DNA of 64,000 bases, from NCBI GenBank assembly GCA_039815145.1, contig JBCBZW010000007.1:1192-65191 (forward strand), written 5' to 3'. Position 1 is the stretch's first letter. Every line of letters begins with the position of its first letter. Source of the DNA: Pseudomonadota bacterium (GTDB taxonomy: Bacteria > Pseudomonadota > Gammaproteobacteria > Steroidobacterales > JBCBZW01). Positions 132-64,000 of this stretch are shown piece by piece. Position numbers and translations under genes: made by a program. The notes under the pieces are model-generated. The model had not been told where the DNA came from. It searched no databases and saw only the letters and a program-made list of their open reading frames with translations.

Positions 132-608
132 ATGGCAACGGCCAATCAAGTCTCCGACAAACGCCAGCTCAGTGGTCAGCGAGTGATCGCCCCGTGCGAG
201 GTCATCGCGGACACGGCGAACCCCTACGCCTGGAATCCCGTGCGCTGTGGCTACATGGTGCTGAACGTTCGCGGCGGTTGCCTCTACCTCGGCGAGGTGT
301 TCGATGACAAGGACATCGATACCATGTTCCCCCGGGATGGGCGCGGGCTCTTCACCAGCCTCACCCTGTGCGCCGAGAACGCCCCCGAGGTGGTGCTCGA
401 GAATGTGCATGTCGCCTTCAAACGCATCAACAAGCACGCCGATCGCGACGGCATCGTCTTCACATTTCTCGATCTATCGGAAGAACAGTTGGACACCCTG
501 TTACGCGCCATCGACACGCTGCCCAGGATCGGGCGCAAGGAGGAGGCCAGCGTACCCCTCGAGAAGGTCATCAGCTTGAACAAGTCCGATCGGCTGACGC
601 TGCTCTAG
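132..608 (+). CDS. PilZ-like domain protein (hypothetical; degenerate c-di-GMP motifs)
   Basis: ORF 27..608; internal ATG at 132 (MATANQ...) preferred. 'KRQLSGQRVIAPCEV', 'VLNVRGGCLYL' and the C-terminal 'GIVFTFLDLSEEQLDTLLRAI' follow the PilZ domain layout. Codon third positions are GC-rich like neighbouring genes. Confidence 0.45.
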   Translation: MATANQVSDKRQLSGQRVIAPCEVIADTANPYAWNPVRCGYMVLNVRGGCLYLGEVFDDKDIDTMFPRDGRGLFTSLTLCAENAPEVVLENVHVAFKRINKHADRDGIVFTFLDLSEEQLDTLLRAIDTLPRIGRKEEASVPLEKVISLNKSDRLTLL

Positions 609-765
609 GCGGATCTCGAGAACCCGCCTCGCCGCCAATCCCGTCTTTTGAGTGTCGTTGATCGGTGACATGAATTGCACTACGCTGTCTTCGTGTGGCG
701 ACATCGGGGGTTCACCTTAGCAATCCCTGCGCCACCGCCTCAGGGAGACCACTAGCAACACGCTC

Positions 766-49308: not shown

Positions 49309-52300
49309 TTACAGGCGTGCCAGCTTTCGAATCTCCTGCGCGGCCACCGTCAGGGTGGAGAAGTCCGGTTCGCCGGATTCGCTGATCTCGAGGATGATCC
49401 GTTGCACCCGGGCGAGGCCCGTCCGATTGCGACCGCCCCACTGCTCCAGCGCGCTCGCGCAGGGCAGCCGATCACCGCCGCAGTTCACCACCACGTGGCG
49501 AACCAGTTCCGCCTGCAGCGAGTACACGGTGTCGCGCAGGCTCTGGCGAGCGATCGCCTGCCAGCGCCCGGCGATGTGCAGCTGCTCTACTGCGTCGCGC
49601 AGCCAGTCAGCACCGGCCAGGCCGCCCACCTGGAAGTACAGCTCGGACATTGCGCTGACGTCCATGTTCGCTTCGGTGGCGATGTCCACGATGTCGAACG
49701 CGCAGGGCAGGGGGCCCAGGGCTGCCATGGCGCGCGCCGTCTCCACGGGCACGTCCAGTCGCTCGTAGCCCTGAACCGCTTGATCGTAGGCGTAGCGCTC
49801 CCGTTGCGTGAGCACCTTGGGCAGGGTGTCGCGCACGGCGCGGATGCCTTGGTGGTAGCGGTCGATGATGCGGCCGATATCGAGTTCACCGCGTTGCCGC
49901 TCGAGCAGCCAATAGGTGGATTGGCGAAGCACGCGGGTGATGGTGAGCAGCATCGAGTACTGGGTGGTGGCGTGGGTCTCGTTATCGAGGGCCTCCACCG
50001 CCGACCACACCGGGCGCAGGTCCAGGCTGAACAAGGCCGCCGCGTAGGCCTGGGCGACGGCGCCGGCATCGGCGCCCGTGTCGTCCATGGTGCGATGGGC
50101 GAAGGTGGGGCCCATGCGATTGATCAGGTCGTTGGTGATCTGGGTGGCGATGATTTCGCGGGCGAGGGGGTGTTCGGTCAGCCGTGCTCCCGCGAGCTCC
50201 ACCAGCTGCGCCGGGAAATAGGCCTTCAGTTCCTCCGCCAGGTGCGGATCTTCGGGGGCCGTCGAGTCGATCAACGCGCCGTAGAGGTGCATCTTGGCGT
50301 AGGACACCAGCACGGAGAGTTCCGGCCGGGTCAGGCCGCGCCCCAGCTTGTTGCGGGCAGTCACCTCTTCCTCATCCGGGAGGAATTCCAGGGCGCGTGA
50401 GAGTTCTCGCTCGCGCTCGAGACTGCGCATCAGGTGCACGTGCTCGCGGAAGCGCTCGGAGGCGATCAATTCCGTCAAGCTGATGGCTTGGGTCTGACGG
50501 TAGTTGCTCTCGAGGACCAGCGTGGCGACATCGTCGGTCATCTGCGCCAGCACGCCCTCGCGCTGGGAGCAGGACACGTCCCCTTCCTTCACCAGGAGGT
50601 CGAGGAGGATCTTGATGTTGACCTCGTGGTCCGAGCAGTCGACGCCGCCCGCGTTATCGATGAAGTCCGTGTTGATGAAGCCGCCCGCGTGGGCGAATTC
50701 GATGCGCGCACGTTGTGTGAGGCCGAGGTTGCCGCCTTCGCCCACCACCTTGCAGCGCAGATCCTTGGCGTTCACCCGTACCGCATCGTTGGTGCGATCG
50801 CCCGCATCCACGTGGCTCTCATCGCTGGCTTTCACGTAGGTGCCGATGCCGCCGTTCCAGAGCAACTGCACGCGCATCTTCAAGATGGCGCGAATCAGGG
50901 CATCGGGCGTGAGTTCCTCGTCCTCCAGGTCGAGCATGGCGCGGGCCTCGCTCGGCAGGCGGATCGACTTCGAGCCGCGGGAGAACACACCGCCGCCGCT
51001 CGAGAGCAGGGTCTGGTCGTAGTCCTCCCAGGTGGAGCGGGGGAGCTTGAACAGGCGTTCGCGCTCGGCGTAGCTGCGCGCCGCGTCGGGCTCCGGGTCG
51101 AGGAAGATGTGCAAGTGGTTGAAGGCCGCCTGCAGGCGAATGTGTGGCGACAGCAGCATGCCGTTGCCGAAGACGTCGCCGGACATGTCGCCGATGGCCG
51201 CTACGGTGAAGGGCTCGCGTTGCGTGTCCACGCCCTCTTCACGGAAGTGGCGCTTGACCGCTTCCCAGGCGCCGCGCGCCGTGATGCCCATCTTCTTGTG
51301 GTCGTAGCCGACGGAGCCACCGGACGCGAAGGCATCGCCTAGCCAGAACCGGTAGCTCGCGGCCACCTCATTGGCGATGTCCGAGAAGGTGGCCGTGCCT
51401 TTGTCGGCGGCCACCACCAGGTAGGAGTCGGGCTCGTCGAGGCACACCGTGTCCTGCGGCGCGACGGTCTCGCCGCCGACGATATTGTCCGTCAGGTCGA
51501 GCAGGCCGCGGATAAAGAGCCGGTAGCATGCGATGCCCTCGGCCATCAACGCCTCGCGATCGCCCTCGGGCAGGCGCTTGGCGACGAAACCGCCTTTGGC
51601 ACCGGTCGGCACGATCACCGTATTCTTGACCTTCTGCGCCTTCATCAGGCCCAGGATCTCGGTGCGGAAGTCCTCGCGGCGATCGGACCAGCGCAGGCCC
51701 CCACGAGCCACCTTGGACGTGCGCAGGTGCACGCCCTCCACGCGCGGGGAGTACACGAAGATCTCGAACATCGGTCGCGGCTCGGGGAGGTCCGGGATTT
51801 GCGCTGGATCGAGCTTGAAGGACATGTACTCGAGGGGCTTACCGTCCTCGCCCCGCTGGTAGAAGTTCGTGCGCAGAGTGGCCATGACCACGGCGTAGAA
51901 GGCGCGCACGATGCGATCTTCATCGGCGCTCGCGATACCGTCGAGGGCCTTCTCCAGGGTGTGCGCGTGCTCGGTGGCGGCCTGCTCATCGCGCCCAGCC
52001 GGATCCAGGCGGGCGTGGAACAGGGCCACGAGCGCGGCGGCCAGGTGGGCGTACTCGCCGAGCACCTCCTCCATGTAGCTCTGGCTGAAGGGCAGGCCGG
52101 TCTGCAGCAAATAGCGGCAATAGGCGCGCAGCAGTGCGGTGTCACGCCAATTCAGGCGCGCGCGCAGGACCAGGGCGTTGAAGCCGTCGTTCTCCACCGC
52201 GCCGCGCCACACGGCGCGAGCGACATCGCGGAAGATGTCTTGCACGTCCTCGATGCGCTCGGGCGCCTCGCGGCAACGCATGTCGAAGTCCTGGATCCAC

Positions 52301-54171
52301 ACGCAGGTCTTGCCGTCGTCCAGTTCTAGTTTGTAGGGACGTTCGCTCACCACGTGCAGGGCCAGGTTTTCGAGGGCCGGCAGCACGTTCGACAGGGAGA
52401 TCGGCGAGAAAGGACGGATCAGCTTCAGGTGGATGTGTTCACGCGGGGCGTCGGCCGGGCGATACAAGGTGATGTCTACGTTGCGCTTGCTCGAGTCGAG
52501 GGCCAGCATGCGCTCGATGTCGTCTGCGGCCGTCTGCGCGCCGGCATCTTCCGTGTAGGCAGCCGGGAACGCGGAGGCGAAGCGCCGGGTCAGCGCGATG
52601 CCGCGCCGCTCGCCGTAGCGCTCGCTCAGGGCTTCGCGCAGGTGATCGTCCCAGGTTTTGGTAACGCGCTCGATGTTCTCCTGCAGCCAGCGCAGCTGGA
52701 TCTTGCCGTCCTGGGTGGGGTCGATGCGCACCACCGTGTAGACGCGGGCCAGGGCGGATTCGGACAGGGTGACCTGAGACTCCAGGGATTCGCCGCCGAG
52801 CCCCTCCAGCATCAAGGCCTCGAGCTTCTCGCGCACGTCCGTGTTGAACTTCTCGCGCGGAATGAACACCAGGCAGGCGATAAAGCGGCGGAACAAGTCG
52901 CGGCGGATGAACAGCCGCGTCAGCTGACGTTCCTGCAAGTTACGAATACTGTTCGCTATCCGCGAGAGGTCCTCGATGCTCGCCTGTAGCAGCTCATCGC
53001 GCGGGTGGGTCTGCAGCACGTGCAGCAGCGTGCGCCCCGCGTGGCTCGCGCGGGTGAGCTCTGCGCGCTGCAGGATCTGCTCCATCTTCAGGCGCACGAG
53101 GGGGATGGCGAGGGCGTCGGTGTAGTAGACGGAGGCGGTGAACAGGCCCAGGAAGCGATGCTCGCCCACCACGCGGCCGGCGGGGTCGTACTGTTTGACA
53201 CCGATGTAGTCGAGGCGTCCGGCGCGGTGGATCGTCGAGACCGTGTCGGCCTTGGTGATGATCAGGGGCTCGCGGCTGCGCAGGTGATGGCGCAGCACGC
53301 GAGCGAACTCCGGCGGGCGGTGGCTGAGGCGGCTATCCGGGCGCAGGATGCCGAGGCCCGTCGACTCGATCGGCACCAGGGTCTCGTTGCCGTCCACGTC
53401 CTCCAGGCGGTACTCACGGTAGCCGAGGAAGGTGAAGTTGCGCCGGTTCATCCACTGCAGGAAGGCGAGGGACTCCTGCAGGATCTGGTCCGGCACCGGC
53501 GGCGCGTCGCTTCCGAGGCCGTCGCGCGCATCGGTCAGGCGGTCGCGCATGGCGCGCCAGTCGTCGATGGACAGGCGCAGGTCCCCCACGCCCTCGCTGA
53601 TGCTGGCGAGCAGGGTCACGAGCTGACGGGTGTCCGCGTCGCGATCGAGCTGCATGTGCACCAGGGATTCGCGATGGCTGCCGGCGGGCGGCTCCTCCTC
53701 CTCGGAAACAAAGCGCACCAGCTCGCCTTGGGCGGTGCGCTCCACCTCGTACACCGGGTGCACGGTCATACGCAGGCTGAGGCCGCACTGCTGCACTGCG
53801 AGGGCCAGGGTGCTGACCAGAAACGGCATATCGTCGCTGATCAGCTCCACCACCAGGCGTGGGGCGGGCGTGGTCCAGCCGTGCTCCGTGCGATTCGGGG
53901 CGTAGACGCGGAACTTCGGGTTCTGGCCTCGCCGATGGCTCACGTACTGGAGGTGAGCGAGGGCGGCGGCGGCGAGCTGCTCCGTGTCGTTCTCGCGCAG
54001 GTCGTCGGGCGCGGCGTTCTCGTAGTAGCGATAGACGAAGCTAGCGACGTCGATCGCCTTCGGCAGGGTGAACCCTGACTCGAGGGCGACCGCGTGAGCC
54101 ACGATCTCCTCCAAGACGCCGGTCATGATGTCGGTCGGACGCCTTACGGTGGCGGTGTATGACTCACTCAT
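49309..54171 (-). CDS. gdhB: Large NAD-specific glutamate dehydrogenase (Bac_GDH, ~180 kDa class)
   Basis: 1620 aa. Catalytic core 'VIVPTGAKGGFV', 'LVVAADKGTATFSD', 'GGSVGYDHKKMGITARGAWE', 'GDMSGDVFGNGML'. Confidence 0.92.
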   Translation of the reverse strand: MSESYTATVRRPTDIMTGVLEEIVAHAVALESGFTLPKAIDVASFVYRYYENAAPDDLRENDTEQLAAAALAHLQYVSHRRGQNPKFRVYAPNRTEHGWTTPAPRLVVELISDDMPFLVSTLALAVQQCGLSLRMTVHPVYEVERTAQGELVRFVSEEEEPPAGSHRESLVHMQLDRDADTRQLVTLLASISEGVGDLRLSIDDWRAMRDRLTDARDGLGSDAPPVPDQILQESLAFLQWMNRRNFTFLGYREYRLEDVDGNETLVPIESTGLGILRPDSRLSHRPPEFARVLRHHLRSREPLIITKADTVSTIHRAGRLDYIGVKQYDPAGRVVGEHRFLGLFTASVYYTDALAIPLVRLKMEQILQRAELTRASHAGRTLLHVLQTHPRDELLQASIEDLSRIANSIRNLQERQLTRLFIRRDLFRRFIACLVFIPREKFNTDVREKLEALMLEGLGGESLESQVTLSESALARVYTVVRIDPTQDGKIQLRWLQENIERVTKTWDDHLREALSERYGERRGIALTRRFASAFPAAYTEDAGAQTAADDIERMLALDSSKRNVDITLYRPADAPREHIHLKLIRPFSPISLSNVLPALENLALHVVSERPYKLELDDGKTCVWIQDFDMRCREAPERIEDVQDIFRDVARAVWRGAVENDGFNALVLRARLNWRDTALLRAYCRYLLQTGLPFSQSYMEEVLGEYAHLAAALVALFHARLDPAGRDEQAATEHAHTLEKALDGIASADEDRIVRAFYAVVMATLRTNFYQRGEDGKPLEYMSFKLDPAQIPDLPEPRPMFEIFVYSPRVEGVHLRTSKVARGGLRWSDRREDFRTEILGLMKAQKVKNTVIVPTGAKGGFVAKRLPEGDREALMAEGIACYRLFIRGLLDLTDNIVGGETVAPQDTVCLDEPDSYLVVAADKGTATFSDIANEVAASYRFWLGDAFASGGSVGYDHKKMGITARGAWEAVKRHFREEGVDTQREPFTVAAIGDMSGDVFGNGMLLSPHIRLQAAFNHLHIFLDPEPDAARSYAERERLFKLPRSTWEDYDQTLLSSGGGVFSRGSKSIRLPSEARAMLDLEDEELTPDALIRAILKMRVQLLWNGGIGTYVKASDESHVDAGDRTNDAVRVNAKDLRCKVVGEGGNLGLTQRARIEFAHAGGFINTDFIDNAGGVDCSDHEVNIKILLDLLVKEGDVSCSQREGVLAQMTDDVATLVLESNYRQTQAISLTELIASERFREHVHLMRSLERERELSRALEFLPDEEEVTARNKLGRGLTRPELSVLVSYAKMHLYGALIDSTAPEDPHLAEELKAYFPAQLVELAGARLTEHPLAREIIATQITNDLINRMGPTFAHRTMDDTGADAGAVAQAYAAALFSLDLRPVWSAVEALDNETHATTQYSMLLTITRVLRQSTYWLLERQRGELDIGRIIDRYHQGIRAVRDTLPKVLTQRERYAYDQAVQGYERLDVPVETARAMAALGPLPCAFDIVDIATEANMDVSAMSELYFQVGGLAGADWLRDAVEQLHIAGRWQAIARQSLRDTVYSLQAELVRHVVVNCGGDRLPCASALEQWGGRNRTGLARVQRIILEISESGEPDFSTLTVAAQEIRKLARL

Positions 54172-54235
54172 CCGTCAGCCTTTTTACTTGCCCGCGCGAT
54201 GGTTCAGGTCGCCAGGAGTCAGGGTTTACACGATC

Positions 54236-55465
54236 TCAGTCGGCCAGGGCCAGGTCAGCGATCACACCGGCGAGGAACCGGCACGCTTCGCCGCCGGTGC
54301 AGGCTCGGTGATCGAAGGTCAGCGACAGGGGAATCACCCGGTGTGCCTCGATACCGCCCATCACCGCGACGACATCGTGACGCACGCCGCCGGTGCCGAG
54401 GATGGCCACGCACGGCGGCACCACCACCGGCGTCGCGTAGCGACCGGCCAACATGCCGAAGTTCGACAGCATGATCGTGGGATCGCGCATGTCGTCGGGG
54501 GAGATGCTGCGCTCGCGGGTGGCCACCTTGAGGCGGTTCACGTCCTCACGCAGTGCCAGCGCGCTCTTGCCATCGACGCCGCGGATCACCGGGACGATGA
54601 GCCCCTGGGGCCCGTCGACCGCCATCGCCACGTCCACGCGGGAGTGCAGCGTGCGGGTGAGCTGCTCGCCGTCGTACCAGGCGTTCATGGCGGGTTCGGC
54701 GGCAACGCCGGCGGCGATCGCACGCAGAACGCGGGCGGTGATGTCCTCGCCCGGACGCCACGCGTGGATGTCGGCGTCGTCGAAGATCGTGCACTCCATG
54801 ACCTCGTTGCGAGAGCGGGTCATGCTGTGGGTCATGGCGCGACGCGGGCCCCGCAGGGGATCGATCACCGTCTCGCCGCTCGCCGGTGCGAGGCTCGGCG
54901 CGGCCGCCGGCGCGGGCGGTGCGGCGGCAGGCGAGGCCGCCGGCGCCGGTGCAGCGCCGGCGTGGCGTTGCAGGTCGGTCTGGGTGATCTGGCCGTTGCG
55001 CCCGGTGGCGGTGACGGTGGTGAGGTCGATACCGAGGCGGGCGGCTTCGGCGCGGATCGACGGCATCGCCTTGATCCGACCGCGCGCGCCGCGGCGACCG
55101 CGACCGGCCACGGCCGTCTCCTGCACCACCTCATCGCTAGTCGGCACGTTGCCGACCACCGTCGCGCTGTCATCGCGCGCCGCTTCGGCCTCGGGTGCTT
55201 CGGCGGGCGGCGCATCGTTGGCCGCTTCGCCGTCGAGGCGGAAGTCGACCAGCGGCTTGCCGGTCTCCACCATCTCACCCTCGGCCGCGTAGAGCTTGGC
55301 GATCGTGCCCGTGTAGGGCGCGGGCACGTCCACCACGGCCTTGGCCGTCTCCACCGACACCATCAGCGAGTCGGCGGTGATCGCATCGCCCTCACTCACG
55401 TGCCACTTCACGATCTCGGCCTCGGGCAAGCCTTCGCCCAGGTCCGGCAGATTGAAGGTCTTCAC
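54236..55465 (-). CDS. 2-oxoacid dehydrogenase E2 (dihydrolipoamide acyltransferase; branched-chain type likely)
   Basis: Lipoyl domain 'LMVSVETAKAVVDVPAPYTG', E3/E1-binding 'IKAMPSIRAEAARLGIDL', catalytic 'LSLTFDHRACTGGEA' (DHRxxxG). Confidence 0.9.
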   Translation of the reverse strand: MKTFNLPDLGEGLPEAEIVKWHVSEGDAITADSLMVSVETAKAVVDVPAPYTGTIAKLYAAEGEMVETGKPLVDFRLDGEAANDAPPAEAPEAEAARDDSATVVGNVPTSDEVVQETAVAGRGRRGARGRIKAMPSIRAEAARLGIDLTTVTATGRNGQITQTDLQRHAGAAPAPAASPAAAPPAPAAAPSLAPASGETVIDPLRGPRRAMTHSMTRSRNEVMECTIFDDADIHAWRPGEDITARVLRAIAAGVAAEPAMNAWYDGEQLTRTLHSRVDVAMAVDGPQGLIVPVIRGVDGKSALALREDVNRLKVATRERSISPDDMRDPTIMLSNFGMLAGRYATPVVVPPCVAILGTGGVRHDVVAVMGGIEAHRVIPLSLTFDHRACTGGEACRFLAGVIADLALAD

Positions 55466-55470
55466 GGCCT

Positions 55471-56448
55471 CTAGTCCTCCAGCGTATCGCGCACGGCGTC
55501 GACGATTCGCTCGACGCTCGGCAGGTAATCCATCTCACGCCGGAACAGTGGCATGACCGTGTCGTAACCCGTGACCCGACGCATCGGCGCCTTGAGCGAG
55601 TAGATGCCCTCTTCGGCCACCAGCGCGGCGATCTCCGAGGCCACGCCGCAGGTGCGCGGGGCTTCGGCCACCACGACGATGCGCCCGGTCTTGTCCAGGG
55701 ACTCGAGGATCGTGTCCGTGTCCATCGGGCTAATGGTGGCGAGGTCGATCACTTCACAGCTCACGCCGTCTGCCTCGAGTTGCTTGGCAGCTTTCATCGT
55801 CTCGAGGGTCATCGCACCCCAGCTGACCAGGGTGACGTCCGTGCCTTCGCGCAGGATGAAGCAGGTGTCCAGCGGCAGCGCCTCGCCGTTGTCCTCCACC
55901 TCTTGCTTGACGGCGCGGTAGATGCGCTTCGGCTCCAGGAACACGACTGGATCGGGGTCGCGAATCGCGGCCAGCAGCAGGCCGTAGGCGCGTGACGGGG
56001 ACGCGGGGATCACCACGCGGATGCCCGGCATGTGGGCGAACATCGCCTCGGTGCTCTCCGAATGGTGCTCCGGCGCGTGGATGCCGCCGCCGTAGGGCGC
56101 GCGCAGCACCATCGGGCAGTGCAGGCGTCCGCGCGTGCGGTGGCGCAGGCGGCCGGCGTGGCTGATCAGCTGGTCCACGGCGGGGTAGATGAAGCCCGTG
56201 AACTGGATCTCCGCCACCGGGCGCATGCCCTGGGCTGCCATGCCGACGGACATGCCGGCGATCATGTTCTCGGCGAGGGGCGTGTCCATCACGCGCTCCT
56301 TACCGAATGTTTGCTGTAGGCCCGCGGTGGCGCGGAATACGCCGCCGTTCACGCCCACGTCTTCGCCCAGCATCAGCACGCTGGGATCGCGCTCCATCTC
56401 GTGGCGCATGGCCATGGTGAGCGCTTCGATGAGGGTTACCCGTGCCAT
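55471..56448 (-). CDS. 2-oxoacid dehydrogenase E1 beta subunit
   Basis: Start re-set to ATG 56448: 'MARVTLIEALTMAMRHEMERDPSVLMLGEDVG'. The upstream portion of ORF 55471..57150 is out-of-frame shadow over E1 alpha. Confidence 0.92.
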   Translation of the reverse strand: MARVTLIEALTMAMRHEMERDPSVLMLGEDVGVNGGVFRATAGLQQTFGKERVMDTPLAENMIAGMSVGMAAQGMRPVAEIQFTGFIYPAVDQLISHAGRLRHRTRGRLHCPMVLRAPYGGGIHAPEHHSESTEAMFAHMPGIRVVIPASPSRAYGLLLAAIRDPDPVVFLEPKRIYRAVKQEVEDNGEALPLDTCFILREGTDVTLVSWGAMTLETMKAAKQLEADGVSCEVIDLATISPMDTDTILESLDKTGRIVVVAEAPRTCGVASEIAALVAEEGIYSLKAPMRRVTGYDTVMPLFRREMDYLPSVERIVDAVRDTLED

Positions 56449-56450
56449 CG

Positions 56451-57536
56451 TCAGTGCCCTCCGCTTTCGCCGCGGTCGTAGCGCTTGGCGTATTCGCGCT
56501 GCTCGACCAGCGAGTGGGGCGGGGTCTCGTACATGTAATCGAACATGGAGTCGACCGTGGGCATGGGCGTGTCGAGGTAAACGGCTACCTCGGACTCGAT
56601 CTCCCGCGTGCACTGCTCGCTGATAGCCTTCTCGGCCGACTCGTCGAGCAGGCCCTCGTTCTCGAGGAACTTGCGGTAGCGCTTGAGCGGCTCGAGCTTC
56701 CAGGCCTGCTCCACCTCTTCCGGTGGGCGGTAGCGGCTGGCGTCGTCCGCCGTGGTGTGGTCGCTCAGGCGGTAGGTGACCGCCTCCACCAGAGAAGCGC
56801 CTTCGCCGCGACGGGCGCGGGATAGGGCCTGGCCGAGGGCTTCGCGCACGGCGAAGACGTCGTTGCCGTCCACCTGGATGCCGGGGATGCCGGCGGCGAA
56901 GGCCTTTTGCGCCAGGGTGCGAGCGGCGGTCTGCAACTCGATGGGCACAGAGATGGCCCATTTGTTGTTCACCACCACGAACACCACGGGCAGCTTCTGC
57001 GCGCCGGCCAGGTTCATGGCCTCGTAGAAGGCGCCCTCGGAGGTGCCGCCATCGCCGATCACGGCGACGGCACAGCGCGGCTCGCGGCGCAGCTTGAAGG
57101 CCATGGCCGCACCCGCGGCATGCAGGCACTGGGTGGCGATGGGCACACACCAGGGAAAGTCGTGGCGCGGGCCGGAAAAGTCGTTACCGCGCTCATCGCC
57201 GCCCCAGTACTGGAGCACTTCCGACATCTTTACACCGCGCCACAGCTGAGCGCCGTACTCGCGGTACATGGGCGCGAACACATCTTCCGCTTCCATCGCC
57301 GAGCCAATGCCGACGTGGGCCGCTTCGTGGCCGAGGCAGGAGGCGTAGGTGCCGAGCTTGCCCGTGCGCTGCAGGTTGATGGCCTTGGTGTCGAACTGGC
57401 GGGTCAGCACCATCATTCGGTACAGGCGCATCAGTTCGTCTTGATCGTTGGCGAAGGCGGGCAGGGGGCCGTTTACGTTGCCGTCCGGATCGAGGATCTG
57501 GACATACTTCACGTCGTAGGAAGCGATGGTCTTCAA
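56451..57536 (-). CDS. 2-oxoacid dehydrogenase E1 alpha subunit (ThDP-binding)
   Basis: 361 aa. ThDP motif 'GDGGTSEGAFYEAMNLAGAQKLPVVFVVVNN'. Confidence 0.92.
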   Translation of the reverse strand: MKTIASYDVKYVQILDPDGNVNGPLPAFANDQDELMRLYRMMVLTRQFDTKAINLQRTGKLGTYASCLGHEAAHVGIGSAMEAEDVFAPMYREYGAQLWRGVKMSEVLQYWGGDERGNDFSGPRHDFPWCVPIATQCLHAAGAAMAFKLRREPRCAVAVIGDGGTSEGAFYEAMNLAGAQKLPVVFVVVNNKWAISVPIELQTAARTLAQKAFAAGIPGIQVDGNDVFAVREALGQALSRARRGEGASLVEAVTYRLSDHTTADDASRYRPPEEVEQAWKLEPLKRYRKFLENEGLLDESAEKAISEQCTREIESEVAVYLDTPMPTVDSMFDYMYETPPHSLVEQREYAKRYDRGESGGH

Positions 57537-57737
57537 AGGTTCTCCTTCCGCGGTGCACCGGTCGTCCGTGCCGGCTCGCGTGTACTGTTCGGGCGCCGCT
57601 CAAGCCTGGCGCGCGCCGGCGGCAGCTGAGGGCGATGTCCCTGCTGCGGCACAGCGTATTCTCGTGGGTGCGGGGGCAGTAGCTGACTGTCTTCCGGCGC
57701 GCGCGATTATACCGATTGCAACGGCCTTACGCGCGCC

Positions 57738-57751
57738 GAAAAGCGCTTTTC
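57738..57751. promoter_or_regulatory. Perfect 14-bp palindrome in the divergent E1alpha / kynA control region
   Basis: GAAAAGCGCTTTTC. It directly abuts an 8-bp inverted repeat CGGCGCGC (57695-57702) / GCGCGCCG (57731-57738) that flanks an AT-rich 28-nt spacer. Confidence 0.35.
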
Positions 57752-57869
57752 TTTACCCTTTCTCACGTCTCGTGGGCAGGCATGAACGGCAGCGTTTAGA
57801 ATGGCGCACCGCCGCAGATGCGCCGGCGCTGGACGCCGGCCCTCCCATCGCCCTGAGGACGCTGTCGAT

Positions 57870-58736
57870 ATGACCGATTCGTCGCCGCCAGACAACGGTG
57901 AAGACCCGCAGGAACTCGAAGCGGGCATCGAGCGCGACCTGCGCGATCGCCTCACCTACACGGGCTACCTGCGCCTGGATCTGCTGCTCAACGCGCAGCT
58001 GCCCCTGAGCGATCCCCAGCACCACGACGAGATGCTGTTCATCGTTCAGCACCAGGTGTCCGAGCTGTGGATGAAGCTGATCCTGCACGAGCTCGACGCC
58101 GCCATCGCCCATGTGGCCGAGGACAACCCCGGCCCCGCGCTGAAGAACCTCTCGCGCGTGGTCCAGGTGCAGCGCCAGCTGTTCAACCAATGGGCCGTGC
58201 TGGAGACCCTCACGCCCTCCGAGTACACGGAGTTCCGCACGGTCCTCGGCAACTCGTCAGGGTTCCAATCGGCGCAGTTCCGGGCCCTGGAGTTCGTCCT
58301 CGGGCGCAAGCGTGCGGCCTACCTCGACGTGTTCCGTCACGACGAGCCGACCCACGCCGAGCTCAGTGCGCGCCTCGCGGCACCGTCGCTCTACGACGTG
58401 TACCTGCACTACCTGGCCCGTCGCGGTCACGCGATCCCCAAGGACGTGCTCGAGCGTGACCTCACCGAGATCCACCAGGCCGACACGCGCGTGGTGGACG
58501 TGCTGGAGACGGTTTACGGCGCGCGCGACGAGCATTGGGAGGCCTACGAGATGTCCGAGAAGCTGGTGGACGTGGAGCACCATTTCTCGCTCTGGCGCTT
58601 CCGCCACATGAAGACCGTCGAGCGCATCATCGGCTTCAAGCGCGGCACCGGTGGATCGTCCGGCGTGCAGTACCTGCGCTCGGGTGTGGACATGCGCTTG
58701 TTCCCGGAGCTCATCGACGTGCGCACCCGCCTGTAG
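57870..58736 (+). CDS. kynA: Tryptophan 2,3-dioxygenase
   Basis: ATG 57870 with GAGGAC SD. 'LTYTGYLRLDLLLNAQ', 'HDEMLFIVQHQVSELWMKL', 'SGFQSAQFR', 'HHFSLWRFRHMKTVERIIG.KRGTGGSSG'. Confidence 0.9.
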   Translation: MTDSSPPDNGEDPQELEAGIERDLRDRLTYTGYLRLDLLLNAQLPLSDPQHHDEMLFIVQHQVSELWMKLILHELDAAIAHVAEDNPGPALKNLSRVVQVQRQLFNQWAVLETLTPSEYTEFRTVLGNSSGFQSAQFRALEFVLGRKRAAYLDVFRHDEPTHAELSARLAAPSLYDVYLHYLARRGHAIPKDVLERDLTEIHQADTRVVDVLETVYGARDEHWEAYEMSEKLVDVEHHFSLWRFRHMKTVERIIGFKRGTGGSSGVQYLRSGVDMRLFPELIDVRTRL

Positions 58737-58765
58737 GGGCGGCGTGAACGAGAAGGAGACGGACC

Positions 58766-59413
58766 GTGGTGAAGCTGTACACCTACTGGCGCTCGAGCGC
58801 GGCCTACCGCCTGCGCATCGCCCTGAACTTGAAGGGCATCGCCTTCGAGTCCGTGAGCGTCAATCTGGCGCCCGCGGTGTCGGAGCAGCATTCCCCCGCC
58901 TACGCCCAGATCAACGTGGAAGGGCGCGTGCCCGCCCTCGAGATCGATGGGCAGACGCTCACCCAGTCCCTGGCAATCCTGGACTACCTGGAGGAGCGTT
59001 ACCCGGATCCTCCCCTGCTGCCCACCGAGCCCTTGGCGCGGGCGCGGGCGCGGGCGCTCGCGCAGCTCGTCGCCTGCGATATCCACCCGCTGAACAACGT
59101 CGCCGTGCTCGGGTACCTAAAGAAGGAGCTAGGATCCGACGCCGACGCGGTCAACGCGTGGTACCAACACTGGATTCACCGCGGCTTTGCGCCCCTCGAG
59201 TCGCGGCTGGCCGCGGCAGGGCAGCCGTTCTGCGCCGGCGAGCAGCCGGGGCTCGCCGATTGCGTGCTCGTGCCGCAGGTGTACAACGCCGTGCGCTTTG
59301 CTTGCGATATGGCGGCCTACCCGACGATACGGGCCATCAACGAGCGTTGCCTTGCGCTTCCCGCCTTCGATGCGGCGCGCCCAGAGGTGCAGCCGGACGC
59401 GACGCCGTCGTAG
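58766..59413 (+). CDS. maiA: Maleylacetoacetate isomerase (zeta-class GST)
   Basis: GTG start. 'KLYTYWRSSAAYRLRIALNLKG', 'QINVEGRVPALEIDGQTLTQSLAILDYLEERYP'. Confidence 0.85.
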   Translation: MVKLYTYWRSSAAYRLRIALNLKGIAFESVSVNLAPAVSEQHSPAYAQINVEGRVPALEIDGQTLTQSLAILDYLEERYPDPPLLPTEPLARARARALAQLVACDIHPLNNVAVLGYLKKELGSDADAVNAWYQHWIHRGFAPLESRLAAAGQPFCAGEQPGLADCVLVPQVYNAVRFACDMAAYPTIRAINERCLALPAFDAARPEVQPDATPS

Positions 59414-59424
59414 GTCGACGCCGA

Positions 59425-62232
59425 TCACTCGTCCTGGCGGTACAGCACGGCCCACGGCGAGCGCATCACATCGCCGCGAACCTCTAGCGGAAACGGCGCG
59501 ATAGGCGTCGGCGCAAAGGGCTCGCAGCCGTAGGCATGACACTGGCGACCCCCGCCGTAGCGCACGGTCATGGTGTTGTCGCGGTAGTCGTAGGTGCCCC
59601 AGGTCTCCACCTGCAGCCCGGCCATGTAGCTCACCTCCATCTGCTGGAAGGTGCCGTCGCCCATGAGCTCCACGTACACCTCGACGCCGCCTTGCCCCTC
59701 ACCGGCCCAGGCACCCACGACCCGCGCTCTGGTCGGTGGTTTGACCGTGGGGATGTCGTCGTCGGGCGGGATGATCGTTGGGATTCCGTCATCGTCGCTG
59801 TTGGCGCCGCCGCCGCTGCCGCCACCTGATCCGCCGCCCGTGGGCTTGGGCTTGTTGGTGTCGGCCAGGCGCTGCGTGCGCCGCACCTGCACGATCTCGC
59901 CCACGGCCTGGCCACCGCCGCCGATGAGGGATTTGATCCACAGGCTGTCGGGCTGGGCAGGGTTGGCGAGGATCATGTAAGGGATGCGCCCCAGCAGCTT
60001 CTCGCCGCTCGCATCGAAAGTGAGGATGCTCAACATCGGCAGCAGGCGGTTGTCGAGCTCAACGAGGAAGTTCCAGTCCCGGGCCTCGGCCGGCAACGCC
60101 TCCTTGTCGGTGACCAGCGCCGCCACCCCATCGGCTACGGGTTGGCCGATGGCGAAGATCGGCGTGTCATCGTCCACGCTCGCCCAAACCCCGGCGAGCT
60201 TGTCGATGGTGAGCTGACGCGCGCCGTCGAAGCCCGCCGCGACTTCCCATTGGGGCGCAACACCGCGCACCGTCGCCCGCGCCACGTGGGTCTCGCCCGA
60301 GAGGTTCTCGGCGATGGCCCAGGTGGTGTAGTCGCCGTTCGGCACCTCGCTCATGATCAGTTCAAGGCCGTTCTTCCACGGCATCTGCACGCCGCGTCGC
60401 AGGGACGGCTCCTGCTCGCCGTCGGGGATGAACTCGTAGAGCAGGGTGACCTGGTCCGTCGGCTGGGGCTTCACGCCCCGCGGCACCACGCGCCCGTCCT
60501 TCATCTCCACCAGCAGGGCGATGCCGTCGGTTTTCCACGTCATTAGGTTGAAGGAGATCACGGCCTGGTGGCGACCGAGTTCGCTGTTCTCAAACTCGGC
60601 GAGGATGGAGACGCTCTGGCCCTCGCCCAGCTGCGCCTCGCTGGCGTCGAGGGTGGCGAAGCCGTAGGTCTCGCCGTTGCTGATGGTGTAGGTCGCCGGC
60701 ATCACCTCCATCTCGAGGGTGGCCGTATTACCCTTGAACACGGGCACCAGCAGTTCGGCCGCATCGCCGCTGGCGGCGAGCTTCTCCTCCAGGAAGCGCG
60801 AGTCGGTCATGTAGCCGCGACTCAAGATCAGATTCCCTTTCTCCTCGGGGCTGTAGCGGCCCGTCAGGCCCTGCACCCAAAGCAGGTTGTTGCCCTCCAC
60901 CTTCAGGCGCAGGGTGGTGCTATCGAGCATCGACGTCGTGGTGCGCTGCTGGCCGTTGCTGGCATCCACGTACTGGAAGTAGCTGATCTTGGGCGGCGCG
61001 CTCTGGCTGCCCTGGTGGCGATGCACGGCCTTGAGTAGCCGCGGCCAGCTGCTGCTGGCGCCGAAGCGGGTCTGCTCATAGGCGGGGTTGTAGGTCCCTG
61101 CGCTCGGGGGGGCGTAGATCGACATGCCGTGGCTGAGGCGATGGCGCAGGGAGTTGCGGCTGTCGACCACGGCGCTGTCCATCGCGTCGACTAGCTGCTG
61201 GAACTCCGCCTGGGCGGGGAACTGCTCGCCCAGAATTACCCGCGAGCGCTTCACCAGATCCAGGAGATCGGAGCTCGACAGCGCGTTCTGGGCCTGCTTG
61301 CGGTTGGTGTCCTTGCCCTGGGGGTTGAAGCTGTCGGCCCAGAAGATGGAGCGGGTGAGGCTGGTCCAGTGCTGGCGTGCCGTAGGCCCGATGCGGTTGG
61401 TCAGGGCGTCGATCGCGCCCTTCACCTGCTCCATCTGGCTGAGGTCGATGGCGGATTGGGTCGCCACCCGTTCGCCCACCTTCTCGGTGTGTTCGCCGTA
61501 GCGACGCACGATGTTCTGGGCCAGGCGCTTGGGGCCGGCCGTGGATTCGGCGAAGGCCGGCAGCAGCACATCGTAGGGCCAGCCGTAGCCGGGCTCCACG
61601 GCCTGCGAGGCCACCATGAAGCGGGCGAAGTCCGCCACCTCGTAGGCGATCTCCACCTGTGCCATGAGGCACATGTCGAAGCCGATGAGATCGAGCTTGC
61701 GCCCTTGGGGAATGGCGTTCGTGAGCGCCTGGCGCAGCTCTGGGAGGCTAAGGTTGTCGTGGGATTGGCCGGTGCCGGCGTCCTCGTCGTCGGCCATGCC
61801 CTGCCAACCGCCGCCGTGGTCCCACATCACCAAACCGTAGCGTTTGGCGGGGTAGTTGCCCACGCTGTACTGGATGAATTTCTCGAGGTTGCGCGGGTCG
61901 CCCGTGTTGATCTCGCCCAGGCGCTTGATCTCCTCGGAGGCGAGGGTGCCGCGTTCCTGGTTCGGGCGCATGCGCAGGATGCGGGCGTCGGTCCAGTCGC
62001 CGAGACCGTCCGTGTACTCCTTGGCGCGATCGATGAGGACGATGATCTCCACGCCCTGCTCGGGCATGCCGGCCTCGATTTCGTCGAGGTCGATGAGTGC
62101 GGCCTCCTCGAGGTTGTTGTCTGCCGCCATGTAGATCATCAGGGTCCAGTCGGCAGGCGCGGCCGTGGCGGCGCCGAGGACGCAGCTTGCCAACAGGGCG
62201 AGCGGACCTAATACATTCGATAAGCGAGTCAT
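59425..62232 (-). CDS. Clostripain-family (peptidase C11)-like secreted/lipoprotein protease with ~500-aa uncharacterised C-terminal region
   Basis: 935 aa. 'LLASC' lipobox-like signal. 'WTLMIYMAADNNLEEAAL.DL.E', catalytic His 'VMWDHGGGWQG' and Cys 'IGFDMCLMAQVE'. A GGGSGGGSGGG linker precedes the last ~115 aa. Confidence 0.8.
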   Translation of the reverse strand: MTRLSNVLGPLALLASCVLGAATAAPADWTLMIYMAADNNLEEAALIDLDEIEAGMPEQGVEIIVLIDRAKEYTDGLGDWTDARILRMRPNQERGTLASEEIKRLGEINTGDPRNLEKFIQYSVGNYPAKRYGLVMWDHGGGWQGMADDEDAGTGQSHDNLSLPELRQALTNAIPQGRKLDLIGFDMCLMAQVEIAYEVADFARFMVASQAVEPGYGWPYDVLLPAFAESTAGPKRLAQNIVRRYGEHTEKVGERVATQSAIDLSQMEQVKGAIDALTNRIGPTARQHWTSLTRSIFWADSFNPQGKDTNRKQAQNALSSSDLLDLVKRSRVILGEQFPAQAEFQQLVDAMDSAVVDSRNSLRHRLSHGMSIYAPPSAGTYNPAYEQTRFGASSSWPRLLKAVHRHQGSQSAPPKISYFQYVDASNGQQRTTTSMLDSTTLRLKVEGNNLLWVQGLTGRYSPEEKGNLILSRGYMTDSRFLEEKLAASGDAAELLVPVFKGNTATLEMEVMPATYTISNGETYGFATLDASEAQLGEGQSVSILAEFENSELGRHQAVISFNLMTWKTDGIALLVEMKDGRVVPRGVKPQPTDQVTLLYEFIPDGEQEPSLRRGVQMPWKNGLELIMSEVPNGDYTTWAIAENLSGETHVARATVRGVAPQWEVAAGFDGARQLTIDKLAGVWASVDDDTPIFAIGQPVADGVAALVTDKEALPAEARDWNFLVELDNRLLPMLSILTFDASGEKLLGRIPYMILANPAQPDSLWIKSLIGGGGQAVGEIVQVRRTQRLADTNKPKPTGGGSGGGSGGGANSDDDGIPTIIPPDDDIPTVKPPTRARVVGAWAGEGQGGVEVYVELMGDGTFQQMEVSYMAGLQVETWGTYDYRDNTMTVRYGGGRQCHAYGCEPFAPTPIAPFPLEVRGDVMRSPWAVLYRQDE

Positions 62233-63161
62233 CGACTGGATCCTCCGTCTTGCTCAGCCCAGGGATCGCTCGGCGTATCTCCCCACGGGTCGCCACCGCC
62301 GCTTTCGGGCGCACCGTCGGCCGCCCATGGATCGGCGCTGCTGTCCGCGGGTTTGTCGCCCAGCATCGCCTGGGCTTCCTCGTGGCCGTCGGCGGCGGCC
62401 TGCTCCAGCCACTGGGTGGCGGCCGCGTCATCGCGGGGGATGCCATCGCCTGCGCGCAGGAGGCGGGCGAGGCGCACCATGGCTTCGGTGTTGCCCTGGT
62501 CGGCGGCGGTCCAGTACCAGCGAGCCGCCTCTTCCATGCTGCGCTCCACGCCCGTGCCCTTGGCGTAGAAGCTGCCCATGTTGAGTTGGGCGATCGGATT
62601 GCCGGCGCCGGCTGCGAAGCGCATGTGCTCCACCGCTTTCTGTAGGTCGACGGTGATGCCGCCGTCGCCGGTGCTCAGGTAGTAGCCGAGCTGGGCGTGG
62701 GCATCGACGTAGCCCTGGCTGGCGGCCTTCTCGTGCCACCCGAAGGCCTTCTTCTCGTCCTTGGCCACGCCGTCACCCTGCTCCAAGGCGAGGCCGAGGT
62801 AGTACTGGCTCGGCGCGTCGCCCATCTGCGCGGCGCGCTCGTAGTACCACACGGCACTTTCGCGGTTGCGCGGGAAGGCGTTGATGCCGTTGATCGTGGA
62901 GGTGCTGCCCTGCCAGTACGCGTGGCCGAGGAGGCGGTGGGCGTGCACATCGCCCTTGCTGGCCTCGGCGTTCAGCACGTCGATGGGGGTGGGGCTGCGC
63001 TGGGCGTCGCCGATCTCCACCGTGGACGCGCCGTCTTCGAAGACCTTGATGATCAGCTTGCTGTCACGGAACTCGCTGGTGGTGGTGGACATCGGGCCCG
63101 GCGCGCAGGCGCCAAGGGTGAGCGAGATCGCAGCCAGCAGGGCTGAAAAGACGCGGGACAT
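62229..63161 (-). CDS. Sel1-repeat (TPR-like) lipoprotein
   Basis: ATG 63161 with GAGGAA SD. Lipobox 'LTLGAC'. At least 5 Sel1 repeats ('A..WYERAAQMGDAPSQYYLGLALEQG', 'AFGWHEKAASQGYVDAHAQLG', and others). ATGA overlap with the C11 gene. Confidence 0.8.
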   Translation of the reverse strand: MSRVFSALLAAISLTLGACAPGPMSTTTSEFRDSKLIIKVFEDGASTVEIGDAQRSPTPIDVLNAEASKGDVHAHRLLGHAYWQGSTSTINGINAFPRNRESAVWYYERAAQMGDAPSQYYLGLALEQGDGVAKDEKKAFGWHEKAASQGYVDAHAQLGYYLSTGDGGITVDLQKAVEHMRFAAGAGNPIAQLNMGSFYAKGTGVERSMEEAARWYWTAADQGNTEAMVRLARLLRAGDGIPRDDAAATQWLEQAAADGHEEAQAMLGDKPADSSADPWAADGAPESGGGDPWGDTPSDPWAEQDGGSSR

Positions 63162-63427
63162 GGTCGAATTCCTCAAGGCGAAACCGTCGTTAGCCCCTTA
63201 GGCGCAAGCGCCCCGAATATCGGCTCACTCCCCCTGAGACGCCGGAGGTTGGGCATTTGACGTAAGGACCAACGGGTTCCTTCCTCGCAGCTCGAGGACA
63301 TTCGTCCGATCTGCCCCCACGCACGTCCCGCTCGATCAGCGGCGAGGCAATCGCCTCGATGCCGTCGCTCCTCCTAACAGGCTCCGCTAGGCCGATCAGC
63401 AACAACAACAAGCACAAGGAGATCAAC

Positions 63428-64000
63428 ATGGCGGTCAAACTGCGTTGGATGACAGCGACCTTCGCGGGCGTGCTACTCGCCCAGGGTGCGATGGCGTCCA
63501 TCACCGAAGTGGACTACTTCTCGCTCGCGGGTACCGAACTCATCGACTTCGAGGGACTCCCCGGGGGCACGGCACCCGGCGTCAACTACGACGCCCTCAT
63601 CGACCTGGACGGCGCGACCTTCGGCGAGCGCTTCGACGGCCAGACGCTGGGCTTCAACGGCAACTCCGATGTGCTCTCTGGCACGCCGGCGGGAGGGTCC
63701 CTGTCGCTCGTCGCGGGCGATCCGAACCAGAACTTGAACATCTTCGAGCACAGCGGTTCGAACGTGCTCACGGGCCTGGGTCCGCTGGAGTTCCCCGACT
63801 TCAACGCCATCGGCGAAGGCGCCGTGTCGATCCTGTTCGACAACGATCAGTCGGAGTTCGGATTCCTCTCCGTCGGCGGCAACCTAGGCGGCGCTACCTT
63901 CGAGTTCTGGGGGCGCGACGGCAGCCTCATCGACACCTTGACCCCGATGGGACTGGGCACGGACTTCTTTGGCTTCACCACCACCGACGGGCTGCAGACG
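63428..64000 (+). CDS. Secreted hypothetical protein, 5' partial view (runs off the window; absent from ORF track)
   Basis: AAGGAG-N6-ATG at 63428. Signal peptide MAVKLRWMTATFAGVLLAQGAMA. The frame stays open for 191 codons to the window end, with GC-rich third positions. 'ELIDFEGLPGG' resembles the N-termini of PEP-CTERM-type exoproteins. Confidence 0.6.
   Translation, partial: MAVKLRWMTATFAGVLLAQGAMASITEVDYFSLAGTELIDFEGLPGGTAPGVNYDALIDLDGATFGERFDGQTLGFNGNSDVLSGTPAGGSLSLVAGDPNQNLNIFEHSGSNVLTGLGPLEFPDFNAIGEGAVSILFDNDQSEFGFLSVGGNLGGATFEFWGRDGSLIDTLTPMGLGTDFFGFTTTDGLQT

Follow-up and report, generated by a model that had tools for sequence, protein, structure and literature searches.

Gene arrangement at the locus

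The 64,000-nucleotide stretch of DNA analysed here (contig JBCBZW010000007.1 of a Pseudomonadota bacterium, hereafter the window, with positions counted from its first letter) carries on its minus strand the gene of a Sel1-repeat lipoprotein (62229..63161; 310 amino acids, aa, plus stop), followed by the gene of a long-form cysteine peptidase of the clostripain family, C11 (59425..62232; 935 aa plus stop). The first was delimited by its open reading frame (ORF), Pfam Sel1 matches and orthologue alignments, and the second by its ORF and its match to Pfam PF03415 (E = 4e-54). A preliminary description of this DNA, made from the letters alone, had reported two ORFs joined by an ATGA overlap; indeed, both ORFs are present, and the stop codon of the Sel1 gene is shared with the start of the C11 gene at 62229..62232 (minus), with the final Arg codon of the Sel1 protein (CGA) donating the A of the overlapping protease ATG. 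For the Sel1 gene, the mechanical ORF call gave an alternative TTG start at 63176, against an ATG at 63161. We retained the ATG because a GAGGA at 63170-63174 lies 8 nucleotides (nt) upstream of it and overlaps the TTG.

The protease gene possesses its own Shine-Dalgarno sequence, GGAGGA (62241..62246, minus), which lies within the end of the Sel1 gene, 8 nt before the ATG, so that this gene should be able to initiate independently, and similar sequences occur at the equivalent place in the orthologous Sel1-C11 junctions. The preliminary description had called the two genes translationally coupled. The ATGA overlap makes such coupling possible, but it is not required, given the Shine-Dalgarno sequence of the protease gene itself and the 2–25 nt that separate the two genes in more distant pairs. 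The G+C content of both genes (0.65–0.69) is the same as that of their surroundings. On the sequence, the two genes form an operon-like pair.

The downstream gene encodes a long C11 peptidase

Residues 33–304 of the protease correspond to the Pfam domain Peptidase_C11 (184.9 bits against a cut-off of 25.8), and the motifs from which a C11 identity had been proposed beforehand, IYMAADNNLEEA (aa 33–44), WDHGGGW (137–143) and GFDMCLMAQ (184–192), are all found in the translation. In a phmmer alignment to clostripain (9cip), MWDHGGGW stands opposite MANHGGGA and GFDMCLM opposite AFDACLM, and thetapain (6n9j) was aligned as well; since both motifs pair in the direct 9cip alignment, His139 (61816-61818, minus) and Cys188 (61669-61671, minus) occupy the positions of the clostripain dyad. 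These two residues and the S1-subsite residue Asp186 (61675-61677, minus), all three aligned to clostripain and thetapain, do not vary among 44 aligned long homologues. They line up with His176/Cys231/Asp229 of clostripain and His133/Cys179/Asp177 of PmC11, in which the roles of the dyad and of the S1 Asp have been described (PMC4850288). As this acidic S1 residue is conserved, the enzyme most likely prefers to cut after Arg or Lys, as would be expected from the same Asp in the C11 enzymes of Bacteroidales (PMC4850288).

In addition, a full-length AlphaFold2 (AF2) model built on the 44-homologue alignment reached a mean predicted local distance difference test score (pLDDT) of 86 and a predicted template modelling score (pTM) of 0.77. 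From the alignment, the AF2 model and Foldseek, aa 27–410 (61003..62154, minus) comprise the C11 catalytic domain and a C-terminal helical subdomain of C11 type. When the full-length model was compared with the PDB, the ten best Foldseek matches were all C11 structures (E 2e-19 to 9e-7), with clostripain 9cip at the head (E = 2e-19, ~400 aligned columns), then thetapain, the distapain zymogen, iotapain, PmC11 and fragipain; the target template modelling (TM) scores for 6n9j and 6mzo were 0.63–0.73. The homologues themselves carry the NCBI name ‘clostripain-related cysteine peptidase’. By Pfam score, alignment and predicted fold, the protease is a true member of family C11 (clan CD). It is neither clostripain itself nor an orthologue of clostripain, as the score of the clostripain equivalog NCBIfam TIGR02806 (83.4 bits) lies below the cut-off of 550. 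Note that the PADLOC models gave no defence-system match for the protease or for the Sel1 protein.

In characterised C11 enzymes, activation proceeds by cleavage after a Lys or Arg of the loop behind the catalytic His, where clostripain excises a nonapeptide (PMC4850288); activation by such a cut is typical of the characterised members and is not a formal criterion of the family. In the window protease, the stretch of the excised nonapeptide is an alignment gap, the post-His loop (aa 144–160; QGMADDEDAGTGQSHD) is acidic and holds neither Lys nor Arg, and no conserved Lys or Arg was found in this loop across the 44 homologues. From the linker gap and the absence of a basic loop residue we infer that the canonical activation cut is not used, and the protease is probably made in a single-chain form that needs no such cut. 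To judge by the title of ref. 37 in PMC4850288, linker-deletion variants of clostripain have been reported to give active enzyme.

The catalytic part is followed by a further 525 residues, about 500 of which had been described beforehand as holding no recognisable motif, and Pfam likewise finds nothing in aa 411–935, even at E <= 10. Pieces of this extension gave noise only, and Foldseek returned no PDB fold match for aa 411–935 at E <= 0.001. AF2 predicts three parts in this region, namely a beta-rich module (aa 411–791; 59860..61002, minus) with pLDDT mostly >90 and no Pfam match, apparently made of three beta-sandwich-like domains at about 415–520, 540–657 and 662–790, a disordered linker rich in Gly, Ser, Pro and Asp (aa 792–835; 59728..59859, minus) and a small C-terminal all-beta domain (aa 836–935; 59428..59727, minus) with strands in 840–932 and pLDDT of ~85–92. 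A separate AF2 model of aa 411–935 (pLDDT 88) displayed the same architecture as the full-length model, and in both the linker has pLDDT <50. The top Foldseek matches for the beta module were generic tandem Ig/FN3/macroglobulin-like arrays only, with a probability <= 0.15.

An exhaustive phmmer search of aa 411–795 against 1.84 billion representative proteins matched 65 proteins (50%-identity clusters), and in every full-length match the module begins after about 420–700 residues of a 900–1200-aa protein, behind the C11 domain. Since it is found only C-terminal to this C11 subfamily, the module is private to a rare, long form of the family, which is thinly spread over Pseudomonadota, Desulfobacterota, Planctomycetota, Campylobacterota, Synergistota, Chloroflexota and some archaea. 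The small C-terminal domain is limited to closer homologues, with a query coverage of ~96–100% at >= 48% identity and of ~70–80% for most of the distant ones. The private C-terminal module probably binds something. As a separate observation, in loci of Campylobacterota and Sedimenticola (L033 525-9180, L022 3337-9039, L038 3306-8200 and L023 5482-10188) the long C11 gene stands amid paralogous fragments or domain relatives (N-terminal-domain proteins of 260–490 aa), and some of these loci also have unrelated Sel1 proteins near the long C11 gene.

Probable export of the protease

The first 25 residues of the protease (62158..62232, minus) form a signal peptide with a probable signal-peptidase-I site, A22-T23-A24 / A25, as supported by the N-termini of the homologues, and aa 1–22 have low pLDDT in the AF2 model. 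The preliminary description had called this protein a lipoprotein, and LLASC (Cys17) does fit the lipobox pattern. However, the AxA site (ATA/AP) follows 7 residues after LLASC, just before the first conserved strand, and homologues have their own AxA sites at the same place, a few residues ahead of the conserved DWT strand; in most of the 44 homologues, a signal peptide with such a site stands ahead of the first conserved strand. A lipobox-like pattern occurs in only 2 of 67 long homologues (the 90%-identical P0001, with LLTSC, and the distant P0041), the orthologue of locus L089 (84% identity) has the signal peptide MKRLMILLAALGVALGPGSWAAAPAPADW with no Cys, and that of L095 (76% identity) has no usable lipobox. 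The window protease is therefore probably a soluble exported protein and not a lipoprotein.

The Sel1-repeat lipoprotein

The upstream gene had been assigned to the Sel1-repeat proteins, and this holds: Pfam PF08238 matches in five stretches (E = 3e-37, 126 bits against a cut-off of 30.7), which make up a Sel1-like repeat (SLR) region of five repeats at ~aa 65–268 (62358..62969, minus), and the PDB sequence matches are Sel1 repeat proteins (6ok3, 4bwr and human SEL1L). The named SLR families all remained below their NCBIfam cut-offs (MerG 68/350, MotX 57/330, ExoR 44/450 and AlgK 26/700 bits). The protein is, by its sequence features, a lipoprotein, as first proposed. Indeed, the signal peptide runs to the lipobox L-G-A-C with Cys19 (63105..63161, minus; LTLGAC in the translation), and the lipobox Cys is found at the aligned position in all 12 Sel1 orthologues examined (invariant in 6 aligned orthologues and at the same place in 7 others, P0118-P0124). 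The window protein and 6/7 of P0118-P0124 also fit a PROSITE-like lipobox pattern, and the orthologues differ in the residue that follows the Cys (A, G, S, E or D).

The N-terminal segment of the mature protein (aa 20–64; 62970..63104, minus) is conserved, with P23, S25, T26, R32, P57, L63 and N64 invariant. It consists of a Ser/Thr-rich tether that includes Arg32 (STTTSEFRDS), with the tether motif xxRD[ST] also found in P0118-P0124, and of a segment, KLIIKVFEDGASTVEIGD, that reads as strand-like. At the other end, the protein carries an acidic C-terminal tail (62232..62357, minus, from the translation and orthologue comparison) that ends in ...WAEQDGGSSR and contains three DPW repeats exactly as quoted in the preliminary description, ADPWAADG, GDPWGDT and SDPWAEQ. 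By our estimate, three DPW tripeptides in a tail of ~45 aa are far above chance. Among orthologues of 71–90% identity, three DPW occur in P0120/L089 and two each in P0118 and P0119; the tail is limited to the window, P0118, P0119/L081 and P0120/L089, and orthologues of 46–60% identity end soon after the last repeat. The repeats thus stand as described, but the significance attached to them does not, as they are confined to the closest relatives; the sequences show a tail that is real but lineage-specific. Acidic C-terminal peptides are classic ligands of grooves of the tetratricopeptide repeat (TPR) type, and the DPW tail might either fold back onto the Sel1 repeats or serve to bind a partner. 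A literature search on ‘DPW motif’ found only eukaryotic endocytic adaptors and plastid HSP90C.

Conservation of the gene pair

Among 80 genome loci with relatives of the protease, a Sel1 orthologue was located directly upstream only in the two closest ones, L001 and L006 (63–66% identity). Contig look-ups added the pairs of L081/L082 (90% identity) and of L083/L084 and L085 (60–61%), and a scan of Joint Genome Institute (JGI) metagenome contigs with the Sel1 alignment gave one true orthologue, L089, in which the protease gene overlaps by ATGA as in the window. Three other JGI matches to this alignment were set aside as generic Sel1 proteins, not orthologues. A protein search revealed seven Sel1 orthologues; in L095 the gene that follows Sel1 is the protease gene, and in L093 the contig ends right after the Sel1 gene. 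With a single exception (L094), all Sel1 orthologues with sufficient flank are thus immediately upstream of a C11 orthologue, and the pair is kept in at least eight distinct loci (window, L081/L082, L089, L095, L001, L006, L083/L084 and L085). The spacing extends from a 4-nt overlap (window, L081 and L089) to 25 nt, the more distant pairs lying 2–25 nt apart.

The flanks of these pairs differ. In the window and L081, the pair lies between genes for a glutathione S-transferase (GST), tryptophan dioxygenase and 2-oxoacid dehydrogenase, at one end, and a PEP-CTERM-like gene, at the other; the neighbours in L083 are hydrolases and a cluster with SHOCT and M48 genes (see below), in L085 a giant 2439-aa protein and a DUF4864 gene, and in L001 and L006 an autotransporter. 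Since the flanking genes differ between paired loci, the Sel1 and C11 genes appear to move as a unit, and their pairing in differing contexts is good evidence for a functional unit. The pair is confined to a small group of uncultured marine-type Gammaproteobacteria.

Wider clusters in relatives

In several relatives, the protease gene belongs to a larger set of genes. In L005/L087, L007 and L008/L088, it lies 15 nt after the gene of a 1295-aa autotransporter and near the gene of a fusion (575–578 aa) of Sel1 repeats with a caspase-like Peptidase_C14 domain; a gene for an extracytoplasmic function (ECF) sigma factor (PF07638) is nearby in L007 and L008/L088, and Ser/Thr kinase-TPR genes in L008/L088. 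In L001 and L006, the Sel1-caspase gene is followed by the autotransporter gene, two small genes and then the Sel1 lipoprotein and C11 genes. This recurrent Sel1-C14/autotransporter/C11 cluster (L088 694-16436, L087 1-11464, L001 1-8700, L006 1-8391 and L007 298-14321), whose protease orthologues have 48–66% identity to the window protease, looks like an undescribed envelope system.

Another cluster, which contains a zinc-ribbon/SHOCT protein (~289 aa), a zinc-ribbon/M48 metallopeptidase (~490 aa), a very acidic ~195-aa protein and other small acidic proteins, is found near the protease or Sel1 genes in ~8 loci (among them L083 8283-13793; L085 12323-17747; L086 236-5033; L088 9735-13561; L093 1468-5373), and in L093 it lies directly upstream of the Sel1 gene. 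DUF4864 (PF16156) is located at the N-terminus of the distant C11 homologues P0027, P0032, P0037, P0039 and P0040, and a stand-alone DUF4864 gene adjoins the Sel1-C11 pair of L085 (6463-6981, minus); its occurrence as a fusion in the former and as a separate neighbour in the latter suggests a further functional partner. The 64-kb window itself holds no Sel1-caspase, autotransporter, SHOCT, M48, ECF sigma, kinase or DUF4864 gene, with only a generic Sel1 similarity of the Sel1 gene, and none of the larger-cluster members was found within 8 kb in L081.

Proposed role of the pair and alternatives

We propose that the Sel1 lipoprotein is the dedicated binding partner of the protease, which it would hold at the membrane while selecting or gating its substrates, and we give this proposal, made by analogy, about an even chance. 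The Sel1 product would be processed through Sec and Lsp and anchored in a periplasm-facing membrane, most likely the outer membrane, and the C11 product would be Sec-exported as a soluble, single-chain cysteine endopeptidase with the dyad His139/Cys188. The lipoprotein might then tether the protease to the membrane and pick or gate what it cuts. The pattern for this model is given by the TPR lipoproteins NlpI and LbcA, which serve the periplasmic proteases Prc and CtpA. In Escherichia coli, NlpI is a TPR lipoprotein that serves the periplasmic protease Prc. To our knowledge, the genes of NlpI and Prc and those of LbcA and CtpA are not adjacent, unlike the window pair. In Pseudomonas aeruginosa, the lipoprotein LbcA activates the protease CtpA (PMC6050968, PMC8764530). 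The combination of a helical-repeat outer-membrane lipoprotein with a soluble periplasmic protease makes these two systems the closest functional analogy to the proposed mechanism. However, CtpA and Prc are S41 serine C-terminal processing proteases with PDZ domains, and the window protease, whose sole Pfam domain is Peptidase_C11, is hence not a member of that group; the repeats of LbcA and NlpI are TPR, whereas those of the window lipoprotein are Sel1-type, and the interaction demonstrated in both systems would only be expected for the window pair. Moreover, that Sel1 repeats are found fused to a caspase-type protease in the related clusters speaks for a targeting role of these repeats.

Several observations weigh against this proposal. 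The known TPR-lipoprotein adaptors serve S41 serine proteases and not clan CD enzymes. The two genes are conserved together in a narrow clade (the eight or more loci above), with the exception of L094, whose Sel1 orthologue (52% identity) has no C11 gene on its 4.4-kb contig, where a convergent Ser/Thr kinase gene follows; protease orthologues at ~50% identity (L002-L005, L007 and L008) have no such lipoprotein gene upstream. These Sel1-less orthologues imply that the lipoprotein is accessory and not obligatory, and that the protease can evidently work alone. The small genes upstream of the protease in these Sel1-less relatives encode proteins that are acidic or of low complexity and are not recognisably related to the Sel1 protein. 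Furthermore, the residues that mark the Sel1-linked protease clade against the other clade are 17 scattered positions with no clear patch, apart from a slight and unconvincing excess in aa 276–325, and Sel1-repeat proteins can be enzyme inhibitors, as shown for PA3978 acting on MltF (PMC10746161).

This last example leads to the idea, which we consider unlikely, that the Sel1 lipoprotein is a cognate inhibitor that provides self-protection or latency by binding the catalytic domain in the periplasm until release or export. Another restraint on the protease would make sense because the usual C11 zymogen device, the activation cut at a basic residue, is missing, and an inhibitor would be made first and in step if its gene came first and the genes were tightly spaced or overlapping, as here; the periplasmic Sel1-repeat protein PA3978 provides a documented inhibitor of an envelope hydrolase. 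However, an indispensable inhibitor would hardly be lost as easily as the ~50%-identity orthologues without the lipoprotein suggest, and Sel1 repeats fused in cis to a caspase-type protease nearby are a layout that one would sooner expect of a targeting domain than of an inhibitor. It is also possible, though again unlikely, that the two proteins make no contact, either because both serve a third envelope or surface component (e.g., the autotransporter) or because they are merely neighbours. Such an arrangement would suit the relatives in which the protease gene follows the autotransporter gene and lies near the Sel1-caspase fusion, the ECF sigma and Ser/Thr kinase genes and the SHOCT/M48 cluster, as well as the protease orthologues without lipoprotein and the Sel1 orthologue that stands beside a kinase gene without a protease gene. 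Against it, the pair stays adjacent while its surroundings change, and neither the window nor L081 has other cluster members nearby.

That both proteins are lipoproteins in the window lineage, anchored side by side in the membrane, appears quite unlikely: the lipobox-like LLASC of the window and LLTSC of P0001, and a signal peptide of a length typical of lipoproteins, speak for it, but neither the 84%- nor the 76%-identical orthologue has the pattern, 65/67 long homologues lack it as well, the AxA site follows where the homologues are probably cleaved, and the lipid anchor would stand only ~11 residues ahead of the first core strand. The Sel1 lipoprotein could finally be a substrate, cut at Arg32 so that the Sel1 domain is freed from the membrane, which we regard as very improbable. 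Arg32 does lie in a Ser/Thr-rich, probably extended tether just past the lipid anchor and is invariant in all orthologues (STTTxxRD[ST]), and the S1 Asp responsible for the Arg/Lys preference of C11 enzymes is present in the protease. However, conserved Arg residues are common, the match to a cleavage site is so far a coincidence of sequence, the conserved tether segment may be a structural or binding element, and we know of no precedent for such a substrate-release arrangement.

Beyond a dedicated binding partner for the protease, one may imagine, as a decidedly unlikely extension, that uncultured Gammaproteobacteria possess an extracytoplasmic proteolytic system, as yet undescribed, of which the Sel1-C11 pair is the minimal, portable core. 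The full form would comprise two clan CD proteases (the long C11 and the Sel1-caspase fusion), the autotransporter, the ECF sigma factor with the Ser/Thr kinase and the SHOCT/M48 cluster. In this system, Sel1 repeats would aim caspase-type proteases at a surface substrate, e.g., the autotransporter passenger, and the private beta-sandwich module of C11 would be a docking site.

Relation to known enzymes and significance

The window protease resembles clostripain (Clostridium histolyticum, MEROPS C11, 9cip) in its dyad, S1 Asp and export, and clostripain is its best fold match, at only 24% identity. It differs by the absence of the excised nonapeptide linker and its acidic post-His loop, by 525 extra C-terminal residues, by a Gram-negative host and by the gene of a partner lipoprotein. 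The Bacteroidales C11 enzymes (PmC11, thetapain, iotapain, distapain and fragipain; 3uws/4yec, 6n9j, 6nag, 6mzo, 5dyn) share the family, the fold and the helical subdomain; these are proteins of ~350–380 aa cut after Lys/Arg, whereas the window protease has 935 aa and no basic loop residue, and the literature search found no Sel1 partner described for them. PA3978 of P. aeruginosa is a Sel1-repeat protein of the periplasm that attaches to the catalytic domain of MltF, a lytic transglycosylase, and acts as its inhibitor (PMC10746161); its target cuts glycan and not protein, and its sequence likeness to the window Sel1 protein appears no more than generic. The Sel1-Peptidase_C14 fusions (L087 9737-11464, L088 1341-3077, L001, L006 and L007) also combine Sel1 repeats with a clan CD protease behind an exported N-terminus, with the repeats in cis with C14, whereas in the window a separate lipoprotein is encoded beside the C11 gene. 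The likeness of the fusion repeats to the window Sel1 protein is generic (38% over 69 aa, 47 bits), and the fusions are themselves uncharacterised.

The literature search found no paper on a proteobacterial C11 enzyme, on Peptidase_C11 with Proteobacteria or on a C11-Sel1 pairing, in agreement with the earlier remark that proteobacterial C11 proteases are largely uncharacterised. The C11 peptidases characterised in the cited literature come from Firmicutes, Bacteroidota, an archaeon and a trypanosome, and all are activated by a cut after Lys/Arg. What is already known is the C11 family as such and both genes, annotated in public metagenome-assembled genomes as ‘clostripain-related cysteine peptidase’ and ‘tetratricopeptide repeat protein’. 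What is new is a long subfamily with a module of its own, the lack of the canonical activation site and the conserved pairing with a Sel1 lipoprotein, none of which was found in the literature search. This rare proteobacterial subfamily without the Lys/Arg switch carries a confidently predicted 380-residue module found nowhere else. If the lipoprotein does dock or gate the enzyme, the adaptor logic of serine proteases (NlpI-Prc and LbcA-CtpA) would extend to caspase-clan enzymes of the envelope. The immediate impact is modest because the hosts are uncultured and both genes are already generically annotated.

Neighbouring genes and upstream region

A simple scan of 59000-64000 gave neither a sigma-70-like promoter nor a relevant terminator. 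Upstream of the Sel1 gene, an alignment of the window, L081 and L089 revealed a conserved block 40–80 nt before the ATG, which fits no promoter class that we recognised; an ECF-type promoter was considered for this block and dropped because the spacing mismatched. On that side, a divergent ORF (63359-64000, plus) runs past the end of the window. It is a homologue of a 245-aa protein of L081 (6037-6774) with a weak PEP-CTERM (PF07589) match, and its C-terminus, the expected place of the PEP-CTERM motif, lies beyond the window. In L094, the convergent kinase-TPR gene that follows the Sel1 orthologue (292-3663 of this locus) encodes 828 aa and is of the type seen in the larger L088 cluster.

Downstream, the stop of a convergent GST/maleylacetoacetate-isomerase-like gene (58766-59413, plus) lies 11 nt from that of the protease gene (59413 against 59425). 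L081 has two extra small genes between the protease and GST genes (11366-12011; a 147-aa protein and a 69-aa HTH_3 protein) that the window does not have. The neighbours on this side of the window (49309-59413) are ordinary catabolic genes, syntenic with L081: besides the GST-like gene, they encode a tryptophan 2,3-dioxygenase (57801-58736, plus), the E2, E1-beta and E1-alpha components of a 2-oxoacid dehydrogenase (54236-57536, minus) and an NAD-specific glutamate dehydrogenase of 1620 aa (49309-54171, minus).

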